Notes under the pieces: model-generated
The model's database searches: none
What the model saw: the letters and a program-made list of their open reading frames with translations, nothing else
What the model was told of the DNA's origin: nothing
From: Schmidtea nova
Taxonomy: Eukaryota
DNA length: 64,000 nt
Direction: 5' to 3'
Assembly: GCA_044892505.1 (NCBI GenBank)
Contig: CM097883.1
Span: forward strand, 393,204,001-393,268,000
Shown here: in pieces, positions 2,865-64,000 of the stretch
Layout: every line of letters starts with the position of its first letter
How positions within the stretch are numbered: the first letter of the stretch is position 1
Program-made: the position numbers and the translations under genes

Positions 2865-3719
2865 TGTTGGGGTTGTGAAAATCACAAAAGCTAAATTTGT
2901 AATTGCACAAATCAATAAAAATACAAAATTTTAAAAATAATAGTTAATGTTCAAAGATTAATTTAAAATTAATTAAAAAAATTAAAATAAAGTTTGAGCG
3001 GGGGAAACTGGTATGGGAAGATGCCAAATGATGAGACGAATTCAAATATGGGTATATAAAATTGAAATGGGACCCCCAGAAAGATAAATTAAGAAAATAC
3101 AAATTAATTAAAAAATAATTAATCGTCTAATGGAAAACCCGAGCCAATGGGAAACCCGAGCTTATGGGAAACCCGAGCGATGTGGGAAACCCGGGGCATC
3201 AACAAAATCATTTAATTATCGAAATAAATTTAATGCCCCGGGAAGAGACGAAAAACCATTAGCGGCGAAACTCAATTAGGCGGCGGTCAAACAAATCTAA
3301 TTATCTCATTTTCTCCAGATCCAATTAAGCCGACAGGATGACAACAAAAAAAAATAGTATATAAACGGAGAGCAAATTGCCGATATCGCCATGTGGTCAA
3401 AGTCAAAGTTTCGAGGTCAACCGATTGAAGAATAAAAGTAGGCAACGTGAAGCAAATCGTTAGAAGACATTTGAAGGAGACGTCGAAAGAAAACCAAAAG
3501 TAGAGTTTATACTTAATCTATTGCGTGTCAGAGAGGGAGATATCCCATTGGGTGTTCTACCCTCACGCGAAGAGTGCAGAACCGGCGTAACTTTTTGTGA
3601 TAAAAAGAGTTGTGATCAATTGAAAATAAAGAAAGTTATTGTGTTGGGTCTTGTTTATTTTGTAATTGAAAGAGAACACCGGAGTCAGAAACTACCGACT
3701 TAACACCAATAACCCAACA
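2865..3719 (+). repeat. 5' LTR
   Basis: Direct repeat of 8707-9561 with 4 substitutions seen by eye; TATATAAA near 3358 and AATAAA near 3431. Confidence 0.95.
3129..3197 (+). repeat. Four ~17-bp tandem repeats (aatgggaaacccgagc) in the LTR
   Basis: Units start at 3129, 3146, 3163 and 3180; repeated in the 3' LTR at about 8971-9039. Confidence 0.85.
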
Positions 3720-3723
3720 TATT

Positions 3724-3741
3724 TGGTGAGCCCGATGTGAT
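3724..3741 (+). promoter_or_regulatory. Primer-binding site complementary to tRNA-Trp 3' end
   Basis: TGGTGAGCCCGATGTGAT lies 4 nt after the 5' LTR and matches the classic tRNA-Trp PBS TGGTGACCCCGACGTGAT at 16/18 positions. Confidence 0.85.
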
Positions 3742-4022
3742 CAAAGTCGGTGAAGCGTTGCAAAAAGAAATCGAATATTTATTGGCAAAAAGAAATTAAA
3801 AGTTTCTAAAAAGTTTGGAAATTGTGAAATTGATTAAAAGAAAAAGTCAGTAAATCGAATCAAGGATTGAGAGAAGTTTGTTGATAATTGTGGAAAGATT
3901 TATACTGTTGAAATTAAAATAAAAGGTAAAATTTATAATTGATATTAAAATTTAGAAGAGAAAAAGTTGTACCAAACCGACCATATTACGAATTGAGAAG
4001 TAATAAACAACCAGAAACAAAA

Positions 4023-7000
4023 ATGAGTAATACAAACCATCAGGATGATACGCCCATGTCCACCAGCAACGGCAATGGCAATGACTATGCTAGCTGCCAG
4101 AAACTGCCAGTAAATCAGTATGGAGGCGATCCAGTGGAATTCGTTGATTTTATGGCTGATTACTACATGTACGCTACAGCCTATGGATGGAGCCAAGCGA
4201 CAATGGTGCAAAGATTGCCACTATATCTAAAGGGAGCAGCGAGAGAAGCCTGGCAACAAATTGACAAAAGAACAATTGCGAATAACTGGACGAAATTGAA
4301 AGATGCCTTAGCCGCGAAACTAATTGGAGGGGATATAAAACGGATAATGCGGCAGAAGTTCTATAATCGAGTGCAAAAATCAGAGGAATCGGTAAGTGAA
4401 TTTGCGTACCACTTGACTACTCTTGCAGAGAAAGCATTCGAAGTAAAGCCGGAACAGATTGAAGTGGCAAAGCAGGTGAAAGAATTGCTACAAGACCAGT
4501 TCTTAACGGGAGTCAAAAAGGAGATCAAAAAGGCATTATGTTATGTGGACTTCAATAACTTTGATGAGTTAATCAAAAAGGCGATGAAAATTGAGTTAAA
4601 TCTGAAAAGTTCACAGCCAAAATCAGAATCGTTTGCCATCATCAATGAACCCAGAGAACGGTCCATAACTCCAGTCAGAAACAATCGGCTTCAGCAATCA
4701 ATTAGTCCATCACCAACGTTTAGACAAAGATTTGAGCCAAATAAATCAACAAATGTTCAAATTGATGAAAAAGAGAGGCCAATTCAATGCAGCCATTGCC
4801 AACGAATAGGACATCATGTTAATCAATGTTGGTTCAAAAATAGATCTCCAAAAAGTCCAACTCCAATTCAGTGTGATTATTGTCAAAGGATGGGACATAA
4901 CAGCAATCAATGCTGGTCTAAAAACAACGTTCAACGAAGCCCAAAACGAATGTGGCCAGATTGGTTGAAGGGTAATGGTGAGAAAAGTTTTAATAAACTA
5001 AATTTTAACGATCAGCGTAAAAACGATAATGTGCAATGTTACAATTGTGGAAGGAAAGGACATGTCTCTCGGAATTGTTTTGCTAGATCGAGGTCTCCAT
5101 CAACTTCGCCATCCCCACAAAGAGATAGAGTGAACCTTCAAGGTCAAATTCAATGTCATTCATGTAGAGGATATGGACACATGGCTAGATCATGCCCGAG
5201 GAATGTCGACAAATTTCAGAAACCTATATTGAAAAAATCGATAAGATTTCAAAATGATCAACTGCAGACAGACAACGTGGCTTTTGTTCAATCAGATGAT
5301 TTCAATGAAAAGATTGAAAACCAAGTGAAAGAAATGGGTCGACGTTTAGATCGTTTAATGTCCAAGTTTGAATCTGATGATGAATTGGATAATCACATGA
5401 TGTATGGATCGCTGCAAGACATGACAGAAGCTGACACGACAACTGGGTGTACAAAAGACGATTTGGAAAGCGAAAAGGCTTCCATGATGATGAAAAGACT
5501 TGAGAAATTACTAGAAGCTAGCGTGGAAGAATCATCTAAAATATTGGTATCGGTTAAAAGCCTGAGTCAAATGTCGTTAAGTATGAGAAAATTGAAAGGC
5601 GCGATTAATTTGTGTGCTAATTATTATCAAATAAATGTAACAAATAGAGAAGAAATTAAAGAATTGATGAGAAAATTTGGGAAAGCGTTTCGAGAAAATA
5701 AATGGTTAGATTTTATTTCTATTGATGTTGTTAATGAAAATGATAAAAATGTGATTACTTGTCGTTGTGAAGCCTATGATCGCGTAAAAGATTTAAAAAG
5801 GAGACTAAGAGAGAAATGTGAAGGCTGGGTAGTCGAATTAAAGTTTAAAAATAGAGATTTAGAAAATGATGAATATTTAATAGATTGTGGTCTTATACCA
5901 AGGAACAAAAATGAATTACAAATAGCCAGTATGATGAGTAACAGTGAAATGACAAGAAGTGATCCGATGCAAATAGTAAAGGAGCTAAATGATGTTTTAT
6001 GTATTGGTGACGAAAACGAAATTAAAGAAATAGTAAAATTAATAGAGGAATCTGAATTTGGGCAAAAGGAAAAATTAGAACTTGCTAATGCGATACGACC
6101 CTATTTGTTTAGAAGAACGGGATATAGACAATGTTTAAAGAGAATAATGAGAAAATTGGGTAAAGAGCTTAGAAAAGATAGAGTTGAGTTAAATTCGTTA
6201 ACAATTGCAATAGAATATGAAGATATTGGGAAAACTGAGTATGTAGAGGAACACTGGTGTACGAAAGTTCGAAAAGAGCGTAAAAGAGCTGCGGAAATGT
6301 TAGGTAAAGATGGAATTATAGTGCTGAGATATAAAGGGGAAGAATTGGATGACGATGAATATTTATATGACTGCGGATGTGTGCCACAGGAACTGGATGA
6401 ATATGGGTATTTAAGTACTAATGGAAGTCAGGGGTATTTGATAAATCGCATAATCGCAAATAAAGAATATAATTCGAGGATGCTTGACAAAGTTGAATTT
6501 TCAGACACAGATGAGCAAACAGAAGAAATAAAGGAAAGCGAAATTGAAATAGTTACTGATGGTTATAATGGGGAAAAGAGGGTTAATAATAATGCTCAGA
6601 CAGCAGAAATGGCAGTTATTGAAGATACGAATATCGAAAAAGGTGAAATAAAAAGTGCGAATACGAAGACTAGAACATTGTATGAGATGAAGAAAACCTT
6701 AGTAAAATTAGAGCAGGAAGTTAAAGAAACAAGTGACGTAATAAGAAATTTGGTTGGAATCGTATACCCAATTCTAAAAATAGAGACTGAAACGGAAGAG
6801 GAATTGAAGGGAATAGTAGAAGAAGTGAAAATCAGACTTCCAGAAGTAGTGCGGCAATTGGGCAAAGAGGATAGCTTTTGTAACTGTGAAGTAATAGAAA
6901 AGTTGATCGAAAATGGGATCGATAAAGAAGTAGTGCTAATAATTCTAACCTACGTTGTTTCAGAGATCGGTATTCATGCATTTACAAAGTCAGACAAGCT

Positions 7001-7166
7001 TGATAATTTCTTTGACATTGCGGCTCGACTAATAAATGATTCTTTAATTAATTGGCTGAGAGAGCGTGGAGGGTGGAAAACATTAAATTTATCGATAATA
7101 AAGAAAAGAAAGAAACCGGAAAATGATTCACCGCAAAGGCAATTAAACGGAAGAGTAAGTCCATAA
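4023..7166 (+). CDS. gag: Gag polyprotein: capsid-like domain, 4 CCHC knuckles, duplicated unknown domain, C-terminal Bcl-2-like domain
   Basis: Open ORF (track 3939-7166; first ATG at 4023). Gag-type motifs LPLYLKGAAREAW and FYNRVQKSEESVSEF. CX2CX4HX4C at 4788, 4872, 5037 and 5154. Ends with NWLRERGGW (BH2-like). No protease, RT, RNase H or integrase motifs seen. Confidence 0.9.
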   Translation: MSNTNHQDDTPMSTSNGNGNDYASCQKLPVNQYGGDPVEFVDFMADYYMYATAYGWSQATMVQRLPLYLKGAAREAWQQIDKRTIANNWTKLKDALAAKLIGGDIKRIMRQKFYNRVQKSEESVSEFAYHLTTLAEKAFEVKPEQIEVAKQVKELLQDQFLTGVKKEIKKALCYVDFNNFDELIKKAMKIELNLKSSQPKSESFAIINEPRERSITPVRNNRLQQSISPSPTFRQRFEPNKSTNVQIDEKERPIQCSHCQRIGHHVNQCWFKNRSPKSPTPIQCDYCQRMGHNSNQCWSKNNVQRSPKRMWPDWLKGNGEKSFNKLNFNDQRKNDNVQCYNCGRKGHVSRNCFARSRSPSTSPSPQRDRVNLQGQIQCHSCRGYGHMARSCPRNVDKFQKPILKKSIRFQNDQLQTDNVAFVQSDDFNEKIENQVKEMGRRLDRLMSKFESDDELDNHMMYGSLQDMTEADTTTGCTKDDLESEKASMMMKRLEKLLEASVEESSKILVSVKSLSQMSLSMRKLKGAINLCANYYQINVTNREEIKELMRKFGKAFRENKWLDFISIDVVNENDKNVITCRCEAYDRVKDLKRRLREKCEGWVVELKFKNRDLENDEYLIDCGLIPRNKNELQIASMMSNSEMTRSDPMQIVKELNDVLCIGDENEIKEIVKLIEESEFGQKEKLELANAIRPYLFRRTGYRQCLKRIMRKLGKELRKDRVELNSLTIAIEYEDIGKTEYVEEHWCTKVRKERKRAAEMLGKDGIIVLRYKGEELDDDEYLYDCGCVPQELDEYGYLSTNGSQGYLINRIIANKEYNSRMLDKVEFSDTDEQTEEIKESEIEIVTDGYNGEKRVNNNAQTAEMAVIEDTNIEKGEIKSANTKTRTLYEMKKTLVKLEQEVKETSDVIRNLVGIVYPILKIETETEEELKGIVEEVKIRLPEVVRQLGKEDSFCNCEVIEKLIENGIDKEVVLIILTYVVSEIGIHAFTKSDKLDNFFDIAARLINDSLINWLRERGGWKTLNLSIIKKRKKPENDSPQRQLNGRVSP

Positions 7167-7178
7167 CTAAGGAAGACG

Positions 7179-7667
7179 ATGATATTCCCTTGGATAATGT
7201 TCATGATGATTATTCTATGTGCAGCTATTGCACAAACGACGTCATTGGTGGCATACGATTGTTCACAAACCGAAATGGGGAAAATTTACTCAGTGGTTGA
7301 TATGTCAGAGTGCCCAGACGCATACCCTCGAAAATTAAAGATTGAAAACGAAGTAAAATACCATGTGTATCAAGAGTCAGATTTACGGCGTACCAAAGTT
7401 AGAGAATGCATTGTAAAACGAACCACTTTTGTATTCTTCTGTGGTAAATGGAGCCATACGTCATTAATCAAAATGCACGCCATTCCACGACCGGTGGATG
7501 TATTGCCGGAAAATTGCTTAACAGCCTTCCAAACGGGGGAATTAAAAATCAGCCCTGAAATTCGATTAAAAGCGAAATTAAATCATCAAATTCGAGAAAC
7601 ATTAGTGGTGAAGGGAGTGATGAAATCAGACGGTGACTGTGAAGGTGAACCGTACTGGTTAAAATAA
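7179..7667 (+). CDS. env: Env-like glycoprotein N-terminus (chuvirus/Monjiviricetes-type fusion protein), 3'-truncated
   Basis: Hydrophobic signal peptide followed by AYDC..DMSEC..C.VK...FFCG.WSHTS..ENC..TGEL..DGDCEG, the cysteine pattern of chuviral-type glycoproteins. Runs into AT-only sequence after about 160 aa. Confidence 0.7.
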   Translation: MIFPWIMFMMIILCAAIAQTTSLVAYDCSQTEMGKIYSVVDMSECPDAYPRKLKIENEVKYHVYQESDLRRTKVRECIVKRTTFVFFCGKWSHTSLIKMHAIPRPVDVLPENCLTAFQTGELKISPEIRLKAKLNHQIRETLVVKGVMKSDGDCEGEPYWLK

Positions 7668-8640
7668 ATATATATATAAATATATAAAATAAATAAATAA
7701 ATATATAAAATAAATACAAAATTTTATATAAATGTATAAATATTATATATAAATAAAGGTATAAATATTGTATATATTATATGTGAATGTATAAATATAA
7801 ATATATAAAGCAAATATATATAAAATATAAATATATAAATAAATAAATACATAAAATTAATTTTAAAAATTAAAAAAAATAGCTCACCGAGTAATGACAT
7901 TTCTGATAAAAATGTGGAGCGCCGCCGCTTATATTCGCGGCGCTCTCTCTCATCTTGCGGAGGGAAATTCTGGGAGATAATTGAGTTGGACCAAATCGAA
8001 TTATCTCCCAAGCTGATGCTGAAAATTTTTAATTGTCAATTTGACAAAATGGTAAATTGGGAAAACTTAAATATTTTTTAAATATACTTAAATATTTTTC
8101 GATTTAATAATTTTTAATATTTTTCGATTTAATAAACAATTTTAGTATGAAATATTAAATGAGTTAATATTATTATTATTATTCTTCTTCTTCTTCTTCT
8201 TCTTCTTCTTATTATTATTATTGTTGGTATTATTATTATCAAGTAATATTGTTATTGATAATCATTATTATTGATCGTTAGTATTAGTATGGCTATTATT
8301 ATTAAGATTAGTACTATCATTAGTACTGTCATCGTTATCAGTGATATTATTATTATTAGTATTATTATTATTATCACTATTGTTGATATTGTTATCAGGA
8401 TTGTTGTTATCATCATCATTATTAATATCAGTATATTGCTAATGTTATTATCACTATTATAAACATCAGTACTATCATTATTATCAGTATGGTGGATACT
8501 ACTGATACTATTATCATCATCATTATTATACTTACGTCATTGTCATTACCACCAGTATTATTGTAATTATTATTATTATCCTTATTATTACAATTAGTGG
8601 GGATATCTTCATCACTACTAATTTTATATGATCCTTGTCA
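7660..8640 (+). repeat. AT-rich low-complexity 3' internal region with (TTC)n and (ATT/ATC)n tracts and a GC-rich island at 7890-8015
   Basis: Directly visible; a homologous region exists on the minus strand at about 55690-58970. Confidence 0.8.
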
Positions 8641-8689
8641 GGATGTATGATCAAAATATGTGTATATGTAGATTCGAGGACGAATCTTT

Positions 8690-8704
8690 AAAATAAAGGG
8701 GAGA
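8690..8704 (+). promoter_or_regulatory. Polypurine tract
   Basis: AAAATAAAGGGGAGA just upstream of the 3' LTR. Confidence 0.8.
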
Positions 8705-8706
8705 TA

Positions 8707-9561
8707 TGTTGGGGTTGTGAAAATCACAAAAGCTAAATTTGTAATTGCACAAATCAATAAAAATACAAAATTTTAAAAATAATAGTTAATGTTCAAAGAT
8801 TAATTTAAAATTAATTAAAAAAATTAAAATAAAGTTTGAGCGGGGGAAACTGGTATGGGAAGATGCCAAATGATGAGACGAATTCAAATATGGGTATATA
8901 AAATTGAAATGGGACCCCCAGAAAGATAAATTAAGAAAATACAAATTAATTAAAAAATAATTAATCGTCTAATGGAAAACCCGAGCCAATGGGAAACCCG
9001 AGCTTATGGGAAACCCGAGCGATGTGGGAAACCCGGGGCATCAACAAAATCATTTAATTATCGAAATAAATTTAATGCCCCGGGAAGAGACGAAAAACCA
9101 TTAGCGGCGAAACTCAATTAGGCGGCGGTCAAACAAATCTAATTATCTCATTTTCTCCAGATCCAATTAAGCCGACAGGATGACAACAAAAAAAAATAGT
9201 ATATAAACGGAGAGCGAATTGCCGATATCGCCATGTGGTCAAAGTCAAAGTTTCGAGGCCAACCGATTGAAGAATAAAAGTAGGCAACGTGAAGCAAATC
9301 GTTAGAAGACATTTGAAGGAGACGTCGAAAGAAAACCAAAAGTAGAGTTTATACTTAATCTATTGCGTGTCAGAGAGGGAGATATCCCATTGTGTGTTCT
9401 ACCCTCACGCGAAGAGTGCAGAACCGGGGTAACTTTTTGTGATAAAAAGAGTTGTGATCAATTGAAAATAAAGAAAGTTATTGTGTTGGGTCTTGTTTAT
9501 TTTGTAATTGAAAGAGAACACCGGAGTCAGAAACTACCGACTTAACACCAATAACCCAACA
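8707..9561 (+). repeat. 3' LTR
   Basis: Direct repeat of 2865-3719. Confidence 0.95.
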
Positions 9562-11199
9562 ATTATATATCATTTCATTCACTTGATGGGTCATTATTTT
9601 CCTTGTCAAAACTCTATCTCGTCGCTGTCAAAAAAATTAGTCGTCATGTATTGTACCCTGAAACCCATTCAGGAATTCCTAATCGTCTCTACAAAAACTC
9701 GTATAAAATACCTGTGCTATCTGAATGTATCCTCACCTTATATTCGCTTGTTGATGTGAGATGGTGGTGGTATTCTATTGCACTACGTACGCGAAAATAC
9801 AAATCGAAATAGCTTTATCTTTATCATTACGTATTTTCGATGTCTGATGTATATGCAAAATACAATTGAAAGTTACTTTCATTTTTGTCAGCATGTGTGC
9901 TCAGTACTCTAATTTGATTTATCGTGCTTCTGCTTTTGTGCCAGTGTGTTATTACCTTCGGTTACTCCATTTTAAAAAACTGCCAAAATATGCTGAGCCC
10001 TATGTGTTACTTTTATCCATCCCATCCAATTAGCGCCGGTACGCCACACCACTCAACACTCCAGGAAGTGTGCGCCGGGAGGCCAATTATCGCCCGTCTG
10101 GTCACGAGACCATCGGGACGTGCCTTTATCGATTTTCATCATGCATGTATTGGAGGAAAATTATGGGTTTAACCGAAATAAATAAAATAAATAAACAAAT
10201 GATACCTGTATTGTTTCCAAATTGATTAAATAGTACAAGCTGCAATAAATTCACAAGCCAAAAGTAATGCTATAAACTTGTTCAACCAAACAAAATTTTA
10301 TCAAGGTATATGGTATAGATATAATATTTTTGAAAAGTGTGTCCTTGTAAGAATTTGACTGCCGCTTATATACTATTTTTCGTTTGCGGTCAGTCTATCA
10401 AAATCCGCCTACCTTCACATAATTGGCAGGTATTTATTGTTATATTGTATGTTAAATCGATTTTTAATTCCATTTTTGGGTAAATAATCCGTTAATTCTC
10501 ATTACTAGATTATTAGATTCGCCCATGGAATAACAAATTGGTTTTAATTCACATTTTATTTTATTATCTTTCTAAGTTTAAATATAGTTTCTGAGCTTGC
10601 CGATGTTATAATTTTCTAATCCAATTGATTTTAAACTCAATCCATTCCTCATGGCTCCCATCTGCTACGATATGGTTAATTTGTTATTATGCATTTTATT
10701 GATTATTTCTATTATCGTTTTAGATTTTCGGAGTTATTTATTAATTATTTCCCCTTCTTTATTTATTATTCTATTTAGTTGTGGATTCTACCCTTATTCA
10801 GGTGGCCCAACATAAATTTGAAATTTTTTTATAGAATTCTGAAATAAAAATTTCAGTATGACGTTATCAGTTACGTAATTATTGGTTGTAATAAAAATAG
10901 GACATGTTACGTAACATACTTAACTATATAATATTATCTAAGTTTTGTAAAACCCTTTAAAATTTATGGGCTTCTGTATAATTATTTCGTATATAGTTGA
11001 GGGATAAATGGCTTGTGCCAGAGTGCTTACTCCCCTTTACTAGCTAGTTCGACCGTGTAGTATTCAACGTTTAAAATAAATCGGAAACTGTATATCGAAA
11101 ATCTGAATACGACACTAATTCAAATTTAACAATAAATACCAATGAATGATTTAGGATATCAAGTTATTTCTTTTGATGCTCCTTTATTTTTGTCAAGCC

Positions 11200-34307: not shown

Positions 34308-35480
34308 GCCCAGTTCTGAAGCACATCGATAATTTCTTTTCATAGAATCTAATAAAACTATTGACAAACGCAGCATAATCATCCATATCGGCATAATTGT
34401 GATAATTCATCTCCATCAGATCGATATTCAATCTGCAAAAACTACTTTCCAAAGTAATTACCAATAACGATTCAATTTTACCATTTTTACAAATAATTGA
34501 AGAAATCTATTCAAAAATTTGAACTATCAAATTAACATAAAACAATTCAAAGGCATCGCCGTCACCAGTCGGAACCTCATCAAGAACTGCTTCCTGAGCT
34601 TTAGGTGCAAAACTCTCGATACATTCCTCTTCACACTGTTCTCTTCGACAAGTTTCCATTAACGTGTTCACATTTTGTTTCCCACCTTTTAGTGCCGTTA
34701 TTCGTTCTCCACCCTTACTCGAGTTTCGTTTTACATCATTGCAAGAAGTTGTAAGGTGTGAGTACCTTCTCCTGTCTTACCAATCCGAGAGTTGATTCCT
34801 TGGTGGGAATAGTTGTATTTCGATTAATTAACTTAGTGAAAACGTCGCCCAGAGTTTCAATACCCAACGAAAGCGGTGTAACATCTAGCAATAATACATC
34901 AGTCACATACCCACAAGAACTCCTCCCTGTATTGCTGCACCCATTGCAACAGCTTCATCTGGATTCACACCCTTACTATGGACTCTACCGAAAGGTTTCT
35001 GTACAGTTTCTTGAACTTTAGGCATTCTTGTTATCCCACCAACTAACAACACTTCTTTAATATCCGATGTTTTTGCCTCTGCATCTTTAATAGCTTTTGG
35101 TAGAGTTTGGATTGATTTTAGTTTTAATTGGAGATATTTTGTAGATATTTTAGATTTGTTTAAATAATCCAATTGGTATTGGATTGGTTTTGGAATTTGG
35201 AATTGTTTATTTGGTTAATTGAGATTTTGAATTTTTGAATGGATTTATCCAATTGGCGATAAAATGGATTGAATTATTTTAGATTCTTTTGAAGTGGTAA
35301 AATTTAATCGTTATTGGTAATTACTTTGGAAAGTAGTTTTTGCTGATTGAATATTGCAAATATCGATCTGATGGAGATGAATTATCACAATTATGCCGAT
35401 ATGGATGATTATGCTGCGTTTGTCAATAGTTTTATTAGATTCTATGAAAAGAGATTATCGATATGCTTCAGAACCAGGCT
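34308..35480. repeat. About 190-bp inverted repeat pair (34308-34500 and 35290-35480)
   Basis: Near-identical reverse complements; the left arm abuts an N gap. Confidence 0.85.
34795..35100 (-). pseudogene. HSPA9: Mitochondrial HSP70 (mortalin) fragment
   Basis: [48 protein letters not shown], then a 1-nt frameshift, then [36 protein letters not shown]. Confidence 0.85.
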
Positions 35481-42245: not shown

Positions 42246-42415
42246 TTTTGAATTTTGATTAATACATCCACTGTAAATTTTCATAAAATTCTATTTCACA
42301 TTAATAAAAGTTTTAAAATTTTCTGTTCTTGTTAAGAGTTTAAAAAATTATAAAAAAAGTTTTCTTATAATTTGTTGTTCTATTGAATAGAATAAAATAT
42401 ATTTTGTATATTAAA

Positions 42416-43063
42416 ACATTAAAATTAACATAGGTCTGAAGTGTTTATATTTTTGCTTTTCCAAAAATATAGTTTATAAACTTACCTGCTAAATTTGATG
42501 CTACTTAGATAGGAGAAACACTTAGAACTTTTTGCACCAGACTTAATTAACACACTATAAATAATATCAGAAATTATTACGAACACTGGGAAAAGTACAT
42601 AAAATGACCCTATATAAAGACAAAACAAAAGCCAAATTTTGTAAGACGGATTCAAAAATTCATTACAAAGATTAGCTTCTGAGACTTCTTATATCAAAAA
42701 ATAGAAACCGTCTATCAACATTTAGTTCGCATAAAAAAAAACATTAAAATTAACATAGGTCTGAAGTGTTTATATTTTTGCTTTTCCAAAAATATAGTTT
42801 ATAAACTTACCTGCTAAATTTGATGCTACTTAGATAGGAGAAACACTTAGAACTTTTTGCACCAGACTTAATTAACACACTATAAATAATATCAGAAATT
42901 ATTACGAACACTGGGAAAAGTACATAAAATGACCCTATATAAAGACAAAACAAAAGCCAAATTTTGTAAGACGGATTCAAAAATTCATTACAAAGATTAG
43001 CTTCTGAGACTTCTTATATCAAAAAATAGAAACCGTCTATCAACATTTAGTTCGCATAAAAAA
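42416..43063 (+). repeat. Tandem duplication, period about 325 bp
   Basis: Units starting at 42416 and 42741 appear identical. Confidence 0.9.
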
Positions 43064-52722: not shown

Positions 52723-53035
52723 GAGTACACTGATTCTGGAATGTCCGAAGACCGACGGCAAGTCAGCCCTAATCTTATGTCAATAGACTTGCTTGTTGTA
52801 TTAAATAATTTTGATATTTAATTTGTTTGGAGGTTGTTTTGAGAAATAATTTTTAATTGTCGAATCTTGTTATCATATCATTGAACAAGGGATATCTAAA
52901 TTTTCCTACCGAAATCATTATAAACCAAACAAAGCAATAACAATAAAAATGAATTCATGTCATGAAATATTGAAAGGGATGATATCAATTATTGTCTAGT
53001 AATTATTAGAATATTACGATAATATTTTTATTTAC

Positions 53036-53292
53036 TTTGATAAGATTTTTAACGCATGAATTGACCAAACATCGCTTAATGGATTACTGCCTTGATATGC
53101 CGGCCTTTCAATTGGATTAGACGGACACGGAGTCCTTTGATTGTATGGGATGGCTGTGAACGATTCCAACGCATGGCATAAAACGTCAAACCCACTATAA
53201 CATGAAACATCTCTAGGCAGAAATGCTGTATGATTTGGATCGACAATACCCAAAGTGGGTTTCAGAGCTCGTTGAGAAATACCCACTTTTGC
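53036..53292 (-). CDS. ADHFE1: ADHFE1 exon 4
   Basis: AKVGISQRALKPTLGIVDP..SGFDVLCHALESFTA..RPAYQGSNPLSDVWS; AG/GT boundaries. Confidence 0.95.
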
Positions 53293-55386: not shown

Positions 55387-55404
55387 TTTTCCTCCACAAC
55401 AAAC

Positions 55405-55872
55405 ATTAGCTCGGGTTTCCCATTAGGCAATTAATTATTTTTATTAATTTGTATTTTCTTTATATTTCTTTCTGGGGCCCCTTTTCAATTTTATATACCC
55501 ATATTTGAATTCGTCTCATCATTTGGCATCCTACCATACCAGTTTCCCTCTTTAAATCTTTAGTTTTGAATTTTATAAAATTTTAATTAATGTTTGCACT
55601 TTTATTATTATTTTTCCAATTTTGTATTTTTATTGATTTGCACATAGCTTTCGTGCCTTACTTTCTGTTTATTTTAACAACCCAAACATGTCTCTCTCCT
55701 TATTTAAGATTCGTTCTCGAATCTATAATATTTAAATGTGCAATGGATTGATAGCGATTGTCTTATAAAAAGAACTCTGCAGCCAGACTTCAATCAATGC
55801 TGCTACCGGGAATTTATCGTCTCGATTACCAATAATAATATTACTGTAGTATTAATAATGCTAAATAATAAT

Positions 55873-55914
<42 letters not shown>

Positions 55915-58900
55915 TGTAATGATATGTTACGCCCAATAATCACTGTAACTAATCTAATAGCTATACCATCGTAGTCACTATAAATTTGACAATTAGTACA
56001 ATAGCTATACCAATAATAATAACGATAGCAATAACAATCCCGATTAATAATTATAACAATAATAACTGAAATAATAGTAATGATAAATAATTTCAATCAT
56101 AATTANNNNNNNNNNNNNNNNNNNNNNNNNNNNNNNNNNNNNNNNNNNNNNNNNNNNNNNNNNNNNNNNNNNNNNNNNNNNNNNNNNNNNNNNNNNNNNN
56201 NNNNNNNNNNNNNNNNNNNNNNNNNNNNNNNNNNNNNNNNNNNNNNNNNNNNNNNNNNNNNNNNNNNNNNNNNNNNNNNNNNNNNNNNNNNNNNNNNNNN
56301 NNNNNNNNNNNNNNNNNNNNNNNNNNNNNNNNNNNNNNNNNNNNNNNNNNNNNNNNNNNNNNNNNNNNNNNNNNNATTATTATTTTTAATAATAATAAAA
56401 ACTACTAATTATAATAATTATAATAGAAATAAATTTATTTAATTTGAGAAAGTTCTATAATTAAGTCTGATATGTTGAGTTGTCTTTATCTTCGGACAAC
56501 GAAAATTTAACAAAATATTTGTTTGTAGCTGCTGCTTTGAAAATAATTTGATGAATCGAATAGAAGACATTTCTAATAAGAGAAAGTAACGGACTTCTGA
56601 TAATATTTGTTAATTTAATTTATCTTTTCAGTGGGAAAAGTTGTTAGTTTTTACGTGATTTGTGCACCACAGAAATTACTCTCTGTGAAAATTAGATTTC
56701 GCGCCGCTTATTGAATTATAAGTGTCCGAATTTTTGACCAAATTTTGCCCGAAAAAAAAATCAGAGATGAGAGAGAAAGCCACCGCACATATAAGTGGCG
56801 GCCTCCTCGTTTTATTTTCATATAGATATTTTGATTTTGATTTTATGCGGCCATTTGGCCAATTTGTAAGTGCAAATGTTATTATTATATTTTCTTAATG
56901 ATAACAATATATAATATTAATAATATATTGCACTTTCGATGCAAAAAATGTGAAAAAAGATTCAGCGTGTAACACGATACATAGAGGAATTGTGTCAATT
57001 AATTGTGCACAATTAACGGCCATTTTACTTATGAAATAAAAAAACGAATCTAGCGAGATCTCATTCATAAATTATTTGCACTTATATTAATATTTTATTT
57101 GGGCGGAATTCGATTTAATTTATAATAACTAGTTGGCTTTTTGTCCGTTTGACAACTACTGACTCCAATTCCTAAGGGTTCTGCATTTGCAACAATGAAT
57201 TCCGTTTCCAATCATCTAGAAAAAAGCGCTGCTTCGGTACATAGGAATCAACGGAAAATGTTACGTTAAGCAAAAAATTTTAGATTAAATATTTCATTAA
57301 ATATTTATTTACATTTAATGTTACAATAGATTCAATTCATTGTTTGTTATGAACAATAATGATGTAANNNNNNNNNNNNNNNNNNNNNNNNNNNNNNNNN
57401 NNNNNNNNNNNNNNNNNNNNNNNNNNNNNNNNNNNNNNNNNNNNNNNNNNNNNNNNNNNNNNNNNNNNNNNNNNNNNNNNNNNNNNNNNNNNNNNNNNNN
57501 NNNNNNNNNNNNNNNNCTTTTCATAAGAGCTATTTTACTTTATAACTATATACACTATCGTTAAATAATTATAAACAACCTAAAAATTTATTATATTTCT
57601 CCGAGTTTTAGAAAAAAATTTGACTGAAAGCCAACTTCTCTATTTTTTAAAGTTCAAAATGCGAAATTCCATTTATATTTAATTTATTAATTTTTCCAAT
57701 TATTTAAAATATAAATACATATATGACGGAGGCACTACAATAACCATAATGCATTTGAGAATTTTTGAGAAATAATCGATACATATGCAGGGATGTTTGA
57801 TGGTAATTTGGGATCGAATCTGAATGAACAGGTTTATAATAATGATAATAATTCATTAATGATATGGATGATGAATTTAAAAATACTTTAGTGTATTCTA
57901 TTTATTACCCTTTGAGAGGTATGGTGTGCACAGTCGATCACCTCAAACGCCGCTCAGGGTAACCACACCCGGTGATTTATGTGTCTTAGATTGTACCCCC
58001 AGCAACCTTTATCGCCTTAAAAAAAATTTTAAATATTCGAAATAGTACTATTGATACTTTACTAATGATAATTGGAATGATAGATATTTTTTTGAAGTTA
58101 GAAGCTTCTTGCTGAGAAAAATTTGTCTTAGTCTTATTTTATTTTTTTATTAATTAACTATTTCGTAATGATTTATTTTATTATGTACTTTATAATTTAT
58201 ATTGATTTATTTTATTATGTTATTGCCACCTCCTTAATACTACTACTAACAATGATAGTAACGATAATATACTTTTACTCTACCATTAATAATATTGTAC
58301 CTAGACATTCCCATTATCGTGACAACAATATAATTATAATAATGATACTAGTAATAATAACAATGATAATAATTGAAATGGTGAATAATTGTAATAATAC
58401 ATCCGATCGAAATAATATTGATAATAGTAATTGGAATGATGAACCTCCTAATCGATATGATGGTTCTGAAATTGGTGTTGAAATTAGAAGTAAAAACGAA
58501 GATTGTCTTGGTTATTCATTTTTATTATGTATTAATTATTACTCTATAATAATATAAATTTTGTCTTATAATTAAAATTAATGATTCATTTTATTATTTT
58601 ATTCAATTTTTCAAACGTCTTTTTTTGGATTTATTTTATTACCTAATTTTGTTGTTTTATTTTTTTTTTGCCAACGTAGACTTTGTCTGCTACTTACTAA
58701 TAATGACATTAACGATAATGCGCTTTTATCGCCCTAATATTATTACAAAGATATAATAACAATAATAATACTATGATTCATTATAATATTTATAATGACA
58801 ATACTTTAAACTGAATATAGTAATAATAAATGCCAACTTTCAATCGCTGCTCAAGGAAGTGCAACCCCAGTGATTATGAGTTGTTGGTTTTTATTTAGTT

Positions 58901-59800
58901 CTAAATTTTATTCATTAGATATAATATTTATAATGATAATACTCTATGCTGAATATAGTAATAATAACTGGAAGTTATTTTTCTCACCATTACCTTTCAA
59001 CCACTTTGGCGACATTCGTTTTGGGCTTCATTGCACATTATTTTTAGACCAACTTTGACTATTACTATGTCCCATCCTTTGACAATAATCACACTGGATT
59101 GGAGTTGGACATTTTGGAGATCTATTTTTGAACCAACATTGATTAATATGATGTCCTATCCGTTGACAATTGATGCATTGTATTGACCTCTCCTTTTATT
59201 TAATTTGAACATTTGTTGATTTTCTCGTCTCAAATCTTTGTCTAAACGTTGGCGATGGACTAATTGATAGCTGAAGCCGATTGTTTTTGACTGAAGTTAC
59301 GGATCTTTCTCTGTGTTCATTAATGATGGCAAACGATTCTGATTTTTACTGTGAGCTTTTCAAATTCAACTCAATTTTCATCGCTTTTTTGATCAATTCA
59401 TCAAAGTTATTGAAGTCTACATCACATAAAACTTTTTTGATTTCCTTTTTGACTCCTGATAAGAGCTCGTCTTGTAACAATTCCTTTACCTGCTTTACCA
59501 CTTAAATCTGTTCTGGTTTTACCTAGAATGCCTTTTCTGCAAGAGTTGTAAAATGGTACGCGTATTCACTTACAGATTCATCTGATTTTTGCACTTGGTT
59601 ATAGAACTTCTCTCGCATTATCCGTTTTATATCCCCCAATTAACATCGCTGCCAAGGCATCTTTCGGTTTCATCCAGTTATTAACAATTGTTCGTTTATC
59701 GATTTGTTGCCAGGCCTGTCTCGCTGCTCAGTTTAGATATAGTAGCAGCCTTTGCACAATTGTCTCTTGGCTAGATCCATAGGCCGTGGCATGAGTACTC
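55405..59800 (-). mobile_element. Decayed, internally deleted second copy of the gag-Bcl-2 LTR family, in ADHFE1 intron 2
   Basis: Partial 3' LTR 55405-55688, PPT and hairpin 55689-55724, ATT-rich tracts, GC island near 56760-56810, gag remnant 58975-59800. Confidence 0.85.
58975..59800 (-). pseudogene. gag: gag remnant collinear with about 4165-4987
   Basis: Reverse complement follows the intact gag nucleotide sequence through knuckles 1-2, with several stops. Confidence 0.9.
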
Positions 59801-60730
59801 TCAACGAAAGAGTACCAATAACCTTCTACCGGCGTTACTTGAATTCAATGAATTGCCTGGACATTAGCAATTATTCTTTTGCAGACATATTCCCCACTTG
59901 GCACAGTACCAACGTTGCCTAGCAATTGTTTCCAAGCTGGAAGAATTATTTATTTTTATGTCGATATGTCTGTGTTAGGCATGAAGCAAAAACAGCCACC
60001 ATTACCTAGCATGGGTGTATACGCAATGAACAGTATGGACGCTAGCTAACGGTATGTTGTGCTAAAAATCGCAGTCATGAAAAAGCAAATTGCGCGTAAA
60101 TCACTAATAGCGACCATGAACACGAAATAAGTAGTTTAGGGGAGCAATTTCATTATAAACGGGTAGTCATGGATACACGAGTAAGATCATTTTCAGGAAT
60201 TATGAATATGTTGAGGTATGGTAACTTTAACTATAGAATATTTAAATTTAACAACTTATACACCAACAACAGTTAAAGAAATAGTTTCTGAAATGTTTTT
60301 ATTTCAAACCAACACTTACTTCGGGACATAAATCTTTCCCAATTGAACAATGATTTTGGAACATCGGAAGCATTAATTATAATAAATTCATTCAACATAT
60401 TACAGTTTGTTTTAATATATTAAGTTTAAGGTCTTTTATGAGGAATTACAAATATATCATCATTTAAATCAATAAATATTCCATCATGAAAATTATTCTG
60501 TCATTAAGAAAAATGTTTTGTAAAGTAATCGGATTATACGAATATTCCATAACTGTTGGAAAGGTTTTCATTGAATATCGAAGCTGAGAAATTCGTGTAA
60601 ACCAAAATTATTAAAATTTCAATAATTATAACAACGTTATTAAGTGCGAAGGAATTAACAGAAATTAATTATAAAAAAATTTGTTAAATAAATATAAAAT
60701 TTATAATTAATAAATAATAATAACTTTTAC

Positions 60731-60952
60731 CTTACACGTATCAATTGCAGAGCCACCTCCAATTGCTACAAATATGTCATAAGGCTTAGATTTGTTCCGG
60801 GCAAAATTTACAGCGTGCATCATACTGACATCAGTTGGCTCTATGTGGACTTGGTCATACAAATCATAATCAATCCCATGTTTTGATAATGAATCAAGCG
60901 CAACCTGAAAACTTGGCAACTGTGCTACATTCTTGTCAGTTACCAATAATGC
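60731..60952 (-). CDS. ADHFE1: ADHFE1 exon 2
   Basis: ALLVTDKNVAQLP..YDQVHIEPTD..FVAIGGGSAIDTCK; AG/GT boundaries, phase 0. Confidence 0.95.
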
Positions 60953-60999
60953 CTAAACACGAATAAAATTTAATTGACTCAAAGTAAATGATTATTAAC

Positions 61000-61215
61000 T
61001 TTTTTACAATTGAAATTTATGATATCCATTCCGATTTCTTTCGTAACACCAGGTCCATAACGAATGTTAGAACAGGCCATTTCAAAAGCGTATTCACATT
61101 GAGATGGATTCAATTTATTTGTGCTTGCAAATCCACACGTAGAATGGGCTGGACATCTTGTACCACTATTAATAATTTCTTTCATCAATGATATAACACG
61201 GATTTTATGGACCAT
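61000..61215 (-). CDS. ADHFE1: ADHFE1 exon 1 (hydroxyacid-oxoacid transhydrogenase; six exons total 1425 nt, 474 aa)
   Basis: MVHKIRVISLM..RCPAHS..EYAFEMACSNIRYGPGVTKEIGMD; the six exons join in frame. Confidence 0.9.
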
Positions 61216-61829
61216 TTTTAAGATTTTGTAAAATGTGTAATTTTCAAAAAATTCAGATTCTGAAATAATATCACAAAACACTTTAATGTTAAAATTTTAC
61301 AAAAATAGTTTTTTTAATAGGTTACTTGAGAAATACGAAGCTAAAATGTTATATAGATTATTTTTTGAAATTAGTAATTTATTATATTATTATTAATGAA
61401 ATATATTTATATATGTGTGTGATTTATATTCTAAAATCTTATGTATAAATTTTTCTAACTGATGAAAGTGCAAAAGTTCACGAGGCCTTGATATTTTTAT
61501 AAAATGAAAATATTTTTTTTATAATTTAAAATTTAGTAATTAAATAACTTTATGAATCGGAAGAATATTTCATTTATTTCTGAAAATAGATCTAACAAAT
61601 ATTTTAAAACAGTAAATTGTTGGACAAAAACTGAAATTTGTTTAAATAAAACGGTAATACTGCATGTAGAGAGCGCGCAAGAAGTAAACTTAAAATTCTT
61701 TCTTGAGAAACACCAAGTAAAACAAAGTAACAACAACACACATAAAAATATAAATGAATAAAAGCTTACCAAGTATACTAGTGCTGGTTTGTTGGTTTGG
61801 TCTTTAAACTGAGATTTTTATTGATGTTA

Positions 61830-62280: not shown

Positions 62281-62717
62281 CGACAAAAATCTAACAATCT
62301 TATATGGTCCATTGTTTCAGCCAAAGTTTGCCTGAACAAACTTTGGCTGCTTTTTGCTGCATGTAATTTCGGTTTAATTGATCAGCGTCTGTGTGCGCAT
62401 TTTTTAATTACTGTTGCGCCTGTGTGCGTGTATTCTGAATTAATTCTCGCGTCTGTGTGCAGTTTATTGTAAATTTTAGCTACACGCGTCTGTGTGCGCA
62501 AGATTATTTTGCAAATTGGAGATTTTTTTAGGATTTATTGTTTAAATATTCTGATGGAATTTTAGTTTTCGATATTTTTTGATTTTGAATTTAGTTCCGA
62601 TTTGGATGAATTGGGTGAATTTAGGAATTTAGATTTGTTTCTTTGAATTCCGGCTAAAAGGGGTATCAAAAATGGAATTTTCATTGTTTATCTATCCTTT
62701 CGCTTTCGATGTGGAAA

Positions 62718-62940
62718 ATGGAACATTCATTGCGTGATTCGTTTTGTGTTGTTAAAAGGGCACTGGAAAGTAAATCTGTTGTTCCTAGTGGAGGCGCATG
62801 TGAAGCCGCTTTGCATGTATATCTCGAGAAATATGCTATGACGATTAGTTCCAGAGAACAAATTGCAATTGCTGGATTCGCTAAAGCCTTGTTGGTTATT
62901 CCCAAGCAGTTGGCTGTCAATGCTGCCTTGGATCCTACTG
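62718..62940 (+). pseudogene. TCP1: Chaperonin CCT-alpha fragment
   Basis: MEHSLRDSFCVVKRALESKSVVPSGGACEAALHVYLEKYA..SREQIAIAGFAKALLVIPKQLAVNAA. Confidence 0.85.
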
Positions 62941-63262
62941 AAATGTATCCTGAATCAAGACTCTGCTGGTTTAACAAAATGATATTTGATGACAATTTAA
63001 CCCAGTTTACTGTGATCGGTAGATTGTTTGGTCTCGCAATTTACAATAACTTTATGATTGATCCTCACTCTCCTCGTGTAATGTTCGAAACATTGTTCAA
63101 TGAAAAGGCTAATCTAGATGATTTAATCGAGCTCAATCCAACCTTGGGGAAATCATTACAGACATTACTTCATTTCGATCAAGGTGATTTTGAGGACATA
63201 TTTATGATTAATTGTGTTATCTCTCTCGAGTCAATTGATAATAAAATCCTTGAAACAGTGTT
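62941..63262 (+). pseudogene. HECT E3 ligase (HERC-like) N-lobe fragment, in frame with the TCP1 fragment
   Basis: SRLCWF..IGRLFGLAIYN..LDDLIELNPTLGKSLQTLL..FEDIF. Confidence 0.8.
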
Positions 63263-63605
63263 GCGTGTTGTCAGAAACAAAAATGGTAGCAGAGCGTGGT
63301 TGCCATCGGGGGACCACGCGCTCTCTGGAATTTTCTAGCTATCCAGCCAGAACAAGGTACCTTTGCTTGGTCTATGTTTTTGTAATATCTTTTTACATTA
63401 TTTTGAACCTTATTATTGTAAATTTTCATCTTGGGTTAAAACATTTCCCCCTCTGCCCTTTACCATGTTTTGCGGTGGGTTGGGTCCATTAAGGGACCGG
63501 AAAAGATGCTGCTATGGGCCCCAGCATTCTTTTCAATTGGGGGACGAAATAGCCAGGAGAACAGATGGACATAGGAGATCTGTTCCTTTAATTGGAAAAA
63601 ATAAA

Positions 63606-63785
63606 ACGGGTGGGGCTTGTGTGAATAAGGGGTGTGTTCCAAAAGAAATAATGTACAATACAGCGATGATTAGAGAGATAGGGCGAGAGGTTAAAAATTA
63701 TGGATTTAAAATCAATTATGAGTGTTTCAACTGGGAAATCATTAAGCTAAAGCGAGATAGTTATATAAAAAATCTGAATAATAGT
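63606..63785 (+). pseudogene. Glutathione-reductase-like fragment (redox-active disulfide motif)
   Basis: [40 protein letters not shown]. Confidence 0.8.
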
Positions 63786-64000
63786 TTTGAAGTAAAATCT
63801 ACAAGTGGGGATACGTTTTTGGGTGGGGAAGATTTTGATAATGTGCCGTTACAAAATATTGTTAATGAATTTAAACGTGATCCAGGCGTTGATGGTAATA
63901 AAGCCCCTATGGCTTCACAGAGAGTTAGAGAAGCAGCTGAAAAGGTTAAAATTGACCTGTCATCAGCTATTCAAACGCACATTAATCTTCCATATTTGAC
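63786..64000 (+). pseudogene. HSPA9: Mortalin HSP70 fragment, in frame with the reductase fragment; open to window end
   Basis: [45 protein letters not shown]. Confidence 0.88.

Follow-up and report, generated by a model that had tools for sequence, protein, structure and literature searches.

A deleted Ty3/gypsy retrotransposon copy in Schmidtea nova and its gag-env-pol parent family with a gB-type Env

Errantiviruses with the gene order GAG-ENV-POL and a gB-type envelope glycoprotein occur in nematodes, bryozoans, and flatworms, and the part of the survey available to us includes six families from Schmidtea mediterranea (PMC13524379). According to the same part of that source, elements with this order are not monophyletic (PMC13524379). 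One of the six, Smed_errantivirus_1 (Platyhelminthes_Rhabditophora), has 45 listed copies there and spans ~14.8 kb (PMC13524379, eLife 2026). In the planarian element Burro / GYPSM1, as described in the accessible part of its report, a CCHC Gag, a BCL2-like domain, and an env with matches to mononegavirus fusion glycoproteins lie in frame before PR-RT-RH-IN, an order shared with the family examined here, in which the Bcl-2-like domain is putative (PMC6431247). Moreover, a study cited in the available portion of PMC13465017 ascribes protection of stem cells to the IAP domain of Burro1. The unconventional gag-env-pol order and the Bcl-2-like domain have thus already been published for planarian elements, as far as these sources were available. 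Outside the flatworms, non-canonical nematode ERVs, reportedly described by Sacco et al. in 2022, are said to carry an env from an RNA virus before pol in a continuous gag-env-pro-pol frame. They resemble the present family in the position of env but belong to a different phylum, and we know of no Bcl-2-like domain in them. Mosquito BEL/Pao elements, reportedly described by Dezordi et al. in 2020, share the chuvirus glycoprotein family with our elements, but the glycoprotein is said to lie downstream of pol and the BEL/Pao backbone differs.

The window analyzed here is a stretch of 64,000 nucleotides from Schmidtea nova, and the features of the element are given by their window positions on the plus strand. 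An LTR element of 6.7 kb (2865-9561) carries gag followed by an env fragment and is flanked by a 4-bp target-site duplication (2861-2864, repeated at 9562-9565), as is one long sister copy (L034/L036). The 5′ LTR (2865-3719, 855 bp), of the TG...CA type, differs from the 3′ LTR (8707-9561) at 4 of the 855 positions. The primer-binding site (3724-3741) is complementary to the 3′ end of the host tRNA-Trp(CCA), with 17 of 18 positions paired by eye in the window copy and all 18 paired in two of the long copies, and a polypurine tract is present at 8690-8704. On the basis of the LTR termini, primer-binding site, polypurine tract, target-site duplication, and the PR-RT-RH-IN order of sister copies, the element is classified as a Ty3/gypsy LTR retrotransposon. 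The genes for the primer tRNA form a large tandem array (G000:C3 from ~128,022,000, period ~282 bp), and a genome-wide pattern search for tRNA-Trp(CCA) gave 1,984 matches (one strand only).

The Gag reading frame (4023-7163), which corresponds to the N-terminal third of a single polyprotein in intact copies, encodes a capsid domain (PF03732, E 9.5e-8), four CCHC knuckles (4788-5195; PF00098, E 2.1e-8), a long linker, and a putative, divergent Bcl-2-like domain at the end (6690-7100). The Pfam match of this last domain to PF00452 (E 0.023) is below the cut-off. The domain retains a BH2-type GGW and lacks the NWGR motif, and when a profile built from four of its sequences was compared with the PDB, all 60 listed of the 95 matches belonged to the Bcl-2 family (best E 0.0024). 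An AlphaFold model of the domain was too poor to use (pLDDT 47), and a Foldseek search with it returned no match at E 0.001, the best being a viral Bcl-2 at E 0.89. These results are suggestive of a Gag ending in a Bcl-2-like domain.

Downstream of Gag, a 162-aa ORF extends from an ATG at 7179 to 7667; it begins with a hydrophobic stretch and contains the motifs AYDC, CGKWSH, and DGDCEG. The earlier note had proposed that it encodes a chuvirus-type fusion glycoprotein, and profile searches confirm this: the ORF (7179-7664) matches the Pfam family PF24664 (Monjiviricetes_fusion) at E 1.4e-23 over profile positions 5-159 of 653, and its score of 83 bits, where the cut-off is 27, excludes a chance match, while the full-length Env of a sister copy (L032) covers positions 5-633 at E 9.8e-88. 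A comparison of Env with PDB sequences gave six matches at E up to 5, none of them relevant. The window ORF represents the first quarter of a class III (gB-type/chuvirus-like) Env. The sequence derived from env spans 7179-7654, and the last few codons of the ORF are 3′ non-coding DNA joined to it by a deletion.

The structure of the family becomes clear from its other copies. A search of the same genome with the window ORF gave 2,740 candidates, and all 150 that were scored matched; for 26 of these 150, the surrounding open frame measures 3381-3402 aa (hand count). In L032, one frame without a stop encodes the Bcl-2-like end, the full Env, an aspartic protease, RT, RNase H, and integrase. Likewise, L094, which represents a family at 72% Env identity, has a single frame of 3178 aa from part of Gag to the C-terminus at a single locus. 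Three more subfamilies keep the domain order, although the L079/L081 copy is interrupted in gag and env. The recovery of the full env and of the position of pol from other copies, which the earlier note had suggested, therefore places a full-length env before pol and in frame (L032, L094). As env is in frame within one polyprotein in the intact copies, neither splicing nor frameshifting nor reinitiation is needed for its expression. The span of one long copy is 17,307 bp. The two LTRs are 99.6% identical to each other in one long copy and 99.9% in another, which indicates recent movement of the family.

Pairwise dN/dS between three subfamilies was 0.035-0.053 for Env, 0.037-0.043 for the capsid, and 0.015-0.027 for RT/RH (the latter two from the two of three pairs that were computable), all rough values as dS is near saturation. 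With the same limit, the Bcl-2-like domain gave 0.21-0.36 and the region following the integrase 0.18-0.22. Env is under purifying selection.

Windowed Kyte-Doolittle hydropathy identified four hydrophobic segments, each present in every one of the five subfamilies examined. H1 separates the Bcl-2-like domain from Env (7179-7238 in the window copy), H2 closes Env, H3 follows the integrase, and H4 lies near the C-terminus. The hydrophobicity of H3 is only moderate (1.7-1.9), and in some copies a helix within the Bcl-2-like domain also exceeds the threshold. Small residues after H1 and H3 fit the (-3,-1) rule by eye, and the furin site R-x-R/K-R is absent from the L032 frame. From this pattern we propose that the polyprotein may be inserted across the ER membrane and cleaved by host signal peptidase together with the protease of the element. 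H1 would act as an internal signal directing Env to the lumen and, after cleavage, would remain on the cytosolic Gag-Bcl2 portion as a tail anchor; the tail anchor of cellular Bcl-2 proteins sits after BH2. H2, the predicted transmembrane segment of Env, would bring the chain back to the cytosol, where PR-RT-RH-IN would hang from the Env tail until released by PR, and the region downstream of the integrase would enter the membrane through H3 and H4 as a second type I protein. Gag, Env, and Pol would then be present in equal amounts on one membrane, which could allow budding of enveloped particles that would likely pass between cells. In the same scheme, the window copy itself would produce an unanchored Gag-Bcl2 at most. 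Overall, we hold with high confidence that the parent is a Ty3/gypsy element of ~17 kb with Gag, a likely Bcl-2-like domain, a gB-type Env, and Pol in one frame of ~3,400 residues, for which ER threading and cleavage are predicted, and that the window copy is a dead, deleted member.

The region between H3 and the C-terminus is encoded in frame (L032:6060-7265, L076:1508-2722, L078:1469-2677, L079:7477-8706, and in L094) and consists of a signal-like segment, an ectodomain of ~320 aa, a strong transmembrane segment, and a short tail. Identity across subfamilies is 50-61%, the L032 ectodomain has eight N-glycosylation sequons, and the tail ends in a PDZ-type motif in four of five subfamilies. 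The module has no significant Pfam family and no PDB match, and a protein search limited to proteins of near length yielded none among 1032 candidates. Four remote homologs were found among 1.84 billion representatives, one of which is a protein of 410 aa with the same plan of signal, ectodomain, and transmembrane segment. A possible relation to FN3 domains is weak (atlas recognition 1804 against a mark of 2300), and an AlphaFold model of the post-integrase tail was too poor to use (pLDDT 35). Judging from this plan, the module is likely a second surface protein. If it is, the family would be a Ty3/gypsy element that enters by means of two glycoproteins, a system unmatched in the literature searched.

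A separate downstream ORF2 of 467-515 aa is found in L032 (L032:7662-9110), with matching ORFs in L076, L078, and L080, and a full frame of 483 aa occurs in many copies; in L096, no ORF of at least 250 aa of this kind follows the tail. Its domain matches ISG20L2 (E 2.6e-7) and ISG20 (E 1.1e-5), is of the DEDDh exonuclease type, and keeps the catalytic D-E-E-H-D residues in four of four sequences; synonymous sites are saturated in the ORF2 pairs. ORF2 is likely an ISG20-like exonuclease, as judged by these residues and matches. No description of the post-integrase module or of ORF2 for this family was found in the literature searched, and subscription journals and Repbase entries may have one.

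Taken further, these features could describe an active, enveloped, retrovirus-like agent, an idea that we put forward tentatively and with low confidence. All of its parts would derive from one four-pass polyprotein with processing similar to that of flaviviruses and alphaviruses, and the Env signal would double as the tail anchor of Gag-Bcl-2. The second surface glycoprotein, possibly made of FN3 repeats, could be a partner of the gB-type fusogen that binds receptors or serves as an immune decoy, and the ISG20-like exonuclease of ORF2 could blunt host RNA defence. Alternatively, Env may be kept for an intracellular role, such as membrane anchoring or budding into the ER or vesicles, with no movement between cells, which we consider possible but rather doubtful. 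The predicted synthesis of Env in a 1:1 ratio to Gag and Pol as parts of one chain, the missing consensus furin site in L032, and the lack of documented particles of this family in the literature searched would suit such a role, but the whole Env ectodomain is constrained as strongly as the capsid by the rough dN/dS ranges given above, and Env extends over nearly the entire PF24664 profile.

The window copy departs from the parent in two ways. Compared with a long copy, it is shorter by ~10,130 bp, and both ends of the deletion share a 9-bp microhomology (7646-7654). The deletion removes the rest of env from ~residue 159, PR-RT-RH-IN, the post-integrase module, and ORF2, and env is followed directly by an AT-rich, microsatellite-rich 3′ non-coding region (7655-8689) that matches the 3′ region of the long copies L033/L036. 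With one mismatch or less allowed, the env-end junction is found at one locus of the genome, that of the window, and env continues through the junction point in all 31 other loci. Stop positions had raised the suspicion that L018, L097, or L098 shares the deletion, which the comparison of loci through env did not bear out. In addition, a stop codon at 7164-7166 ends Gag 12 nt before the ATG at 7179. It was found in one of 96 junction matches genome-wide (30-letter pattern with the stop codon left open), namely the window copy, and is absent in all 29 other loci translated, where the Bcl-2-like domain reads on into Env. It is therefore private to this copy and is not the gag stop of the family. 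The stop, the 12-nt gap, the hydrophobic start, and the cysteine motifs that the earlier note described are all present, but as a trait of the family the arrangement falls away with the single occurrence of the stop, and so does the proposed separate env ORF, since the other 29 loci carry env in frame.

The stop may be a private nonsense mutation or an assembly error, because contigs lose rare variants. It is improbable, in our estimation, that the stop and/or the 10-kb deletion arose as an assembly error in a collapsed repeat. The letter of the window at 7164 is absent from the contigs of four public runs of one study, and next to the deletion junction lies low-complexity DNA at which the reads are truncated, so that contig coverage ends at 7666. 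On the other hand, one copy in ~100 is not expected in such contigs, as they drop rare variants, low-depth contigs bridge the left flank into the LTR, the target-site duplication is intact, and the junction lies on the 9-bp microhomology. Real deletions often sit on microhomology.

It is very improbable that the family is a gag-env family without pol, or that its gag ends in a genuine stop and env is translated separately by reinitiation or splicing: in the window alone, the ATG shortly after the stop opens a signal-like segment, and the nearly intact LTRs, primer-binding site, and polypurine tract could let this copy be mobilised in trans, but the stop and the junction each occur once and env runs on at every other locus compared. 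Among the three parents that the earlier note had offered, the sister copies thus favor gag-env-pol; a precise deletion of pol is contradicted by the cut in env itself and the additional loss of ORF2, and no pol-less family was found. The window copy is a dead, internally deleted member of a young, many-copy retrotransposon family, and the feature that had been flagged is ordinary in that a known in-frame gag-env-pol layout was mistaken for a separate env gene through a broken copy.

Several other features were observed in the window. On the minus strand, 55404-59832 holds a decayed member of a sister subfamily that has suffered deletion, with a partial LTR and gag at 82-87% DNA identity and one frameshift. 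It sits between two ORF pieces (53032-53292 and 60707-61296) that resemble exons of a hydroxyacid-oxoacid transhydrogenase gene. At 62658-64000, ORFs resemble patchworks of unrelated host gene fragments, presumably chaperonin and HECT-like on the plus strand and glutathione reductase and Hsp70-like on the minus strand, and are possibly the cargo of another transposon. There is also a near-exact tandem duplication of ~325 bp (42413-43037) and a long inverted-repeat pair (121 nt, 97%; 34308-35479), which may be a DNA-transposon relic.

At the family level, the broken window copy aside, the elements match the planarian GAG-ENV-POL errantiviruses, as presented in the available part of the survey, in the gB-type Env, the uninterrupted domain order, and the presence of several near-identical copies. 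Smed_errantivirus_1 has the same Ty3/gypsy affiliation, HSV/gB-type env, and GAG-ENV-POL order in that part of the source (PMC13524379). In the Env stretch, to which the comparison was confined, 86 of 104 residues of the window Env are identical to it by eye, and it is far closer to the window Env than the other five Smed families in the part available. By Env similarity, the window family is probably the counterpart of Smed_errantivirus_1 in a related planarian. No tRNA or LTR is listed for Smed_errantivirus_1 in the accessible part, whereas the window family has a tRNA-Trp primer-binding site and defined LTRs (PMC13524379). The accessible main text of that paper contains no mention of the terms "in-frame", "polyprotein", "fused", "exonuclease", or "accessory" (PMC13524379).

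An accessory exonuclease is known from the bdelloid elements Juno/Vesta, in which, according to the part of the report available, a DnaQ-like ORF3 with DEDD changed to DEED lies downstream of pol, as ORF2 does here (PMC5408684). That exonuclease is described there as RNase D-like, of the DEDDy type, and as replacing env, whereas ORF2 is ISG20L2/ISG20-like, of the DEDDh type, and coexists with env (PMC5408684).

Burro, as far as its report was available, differs from the window family mainly in size and content. It exceeds 30 kb and has an ORF1 of 4,873-5,140 aa, in contrast to ~17 kb and ~3,400 aa here (PMC6431247). It has MATH, BIR, ankyrin, and dUTPase domains, none of which was detected by Pfam in the gag or env-pol frame of the window family (PMC6431247). 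The accessible part of the Burro description includes neither a membrane module after the integrase nor an ORF2 for an exonuclease, both of which are predicted for the window family (PMC6431247). As the family works in a Burro-like manner but lacks the size and extra domains of Burro, we file it under the planarian GAG-ENV-POL errantiviruses. Being young, abundant, and compact, it is less complex than the 30-kb Burro as a system in which to ask how a single polyprotein could combine cytosolic Gag and Pol with a luminal Env between them.
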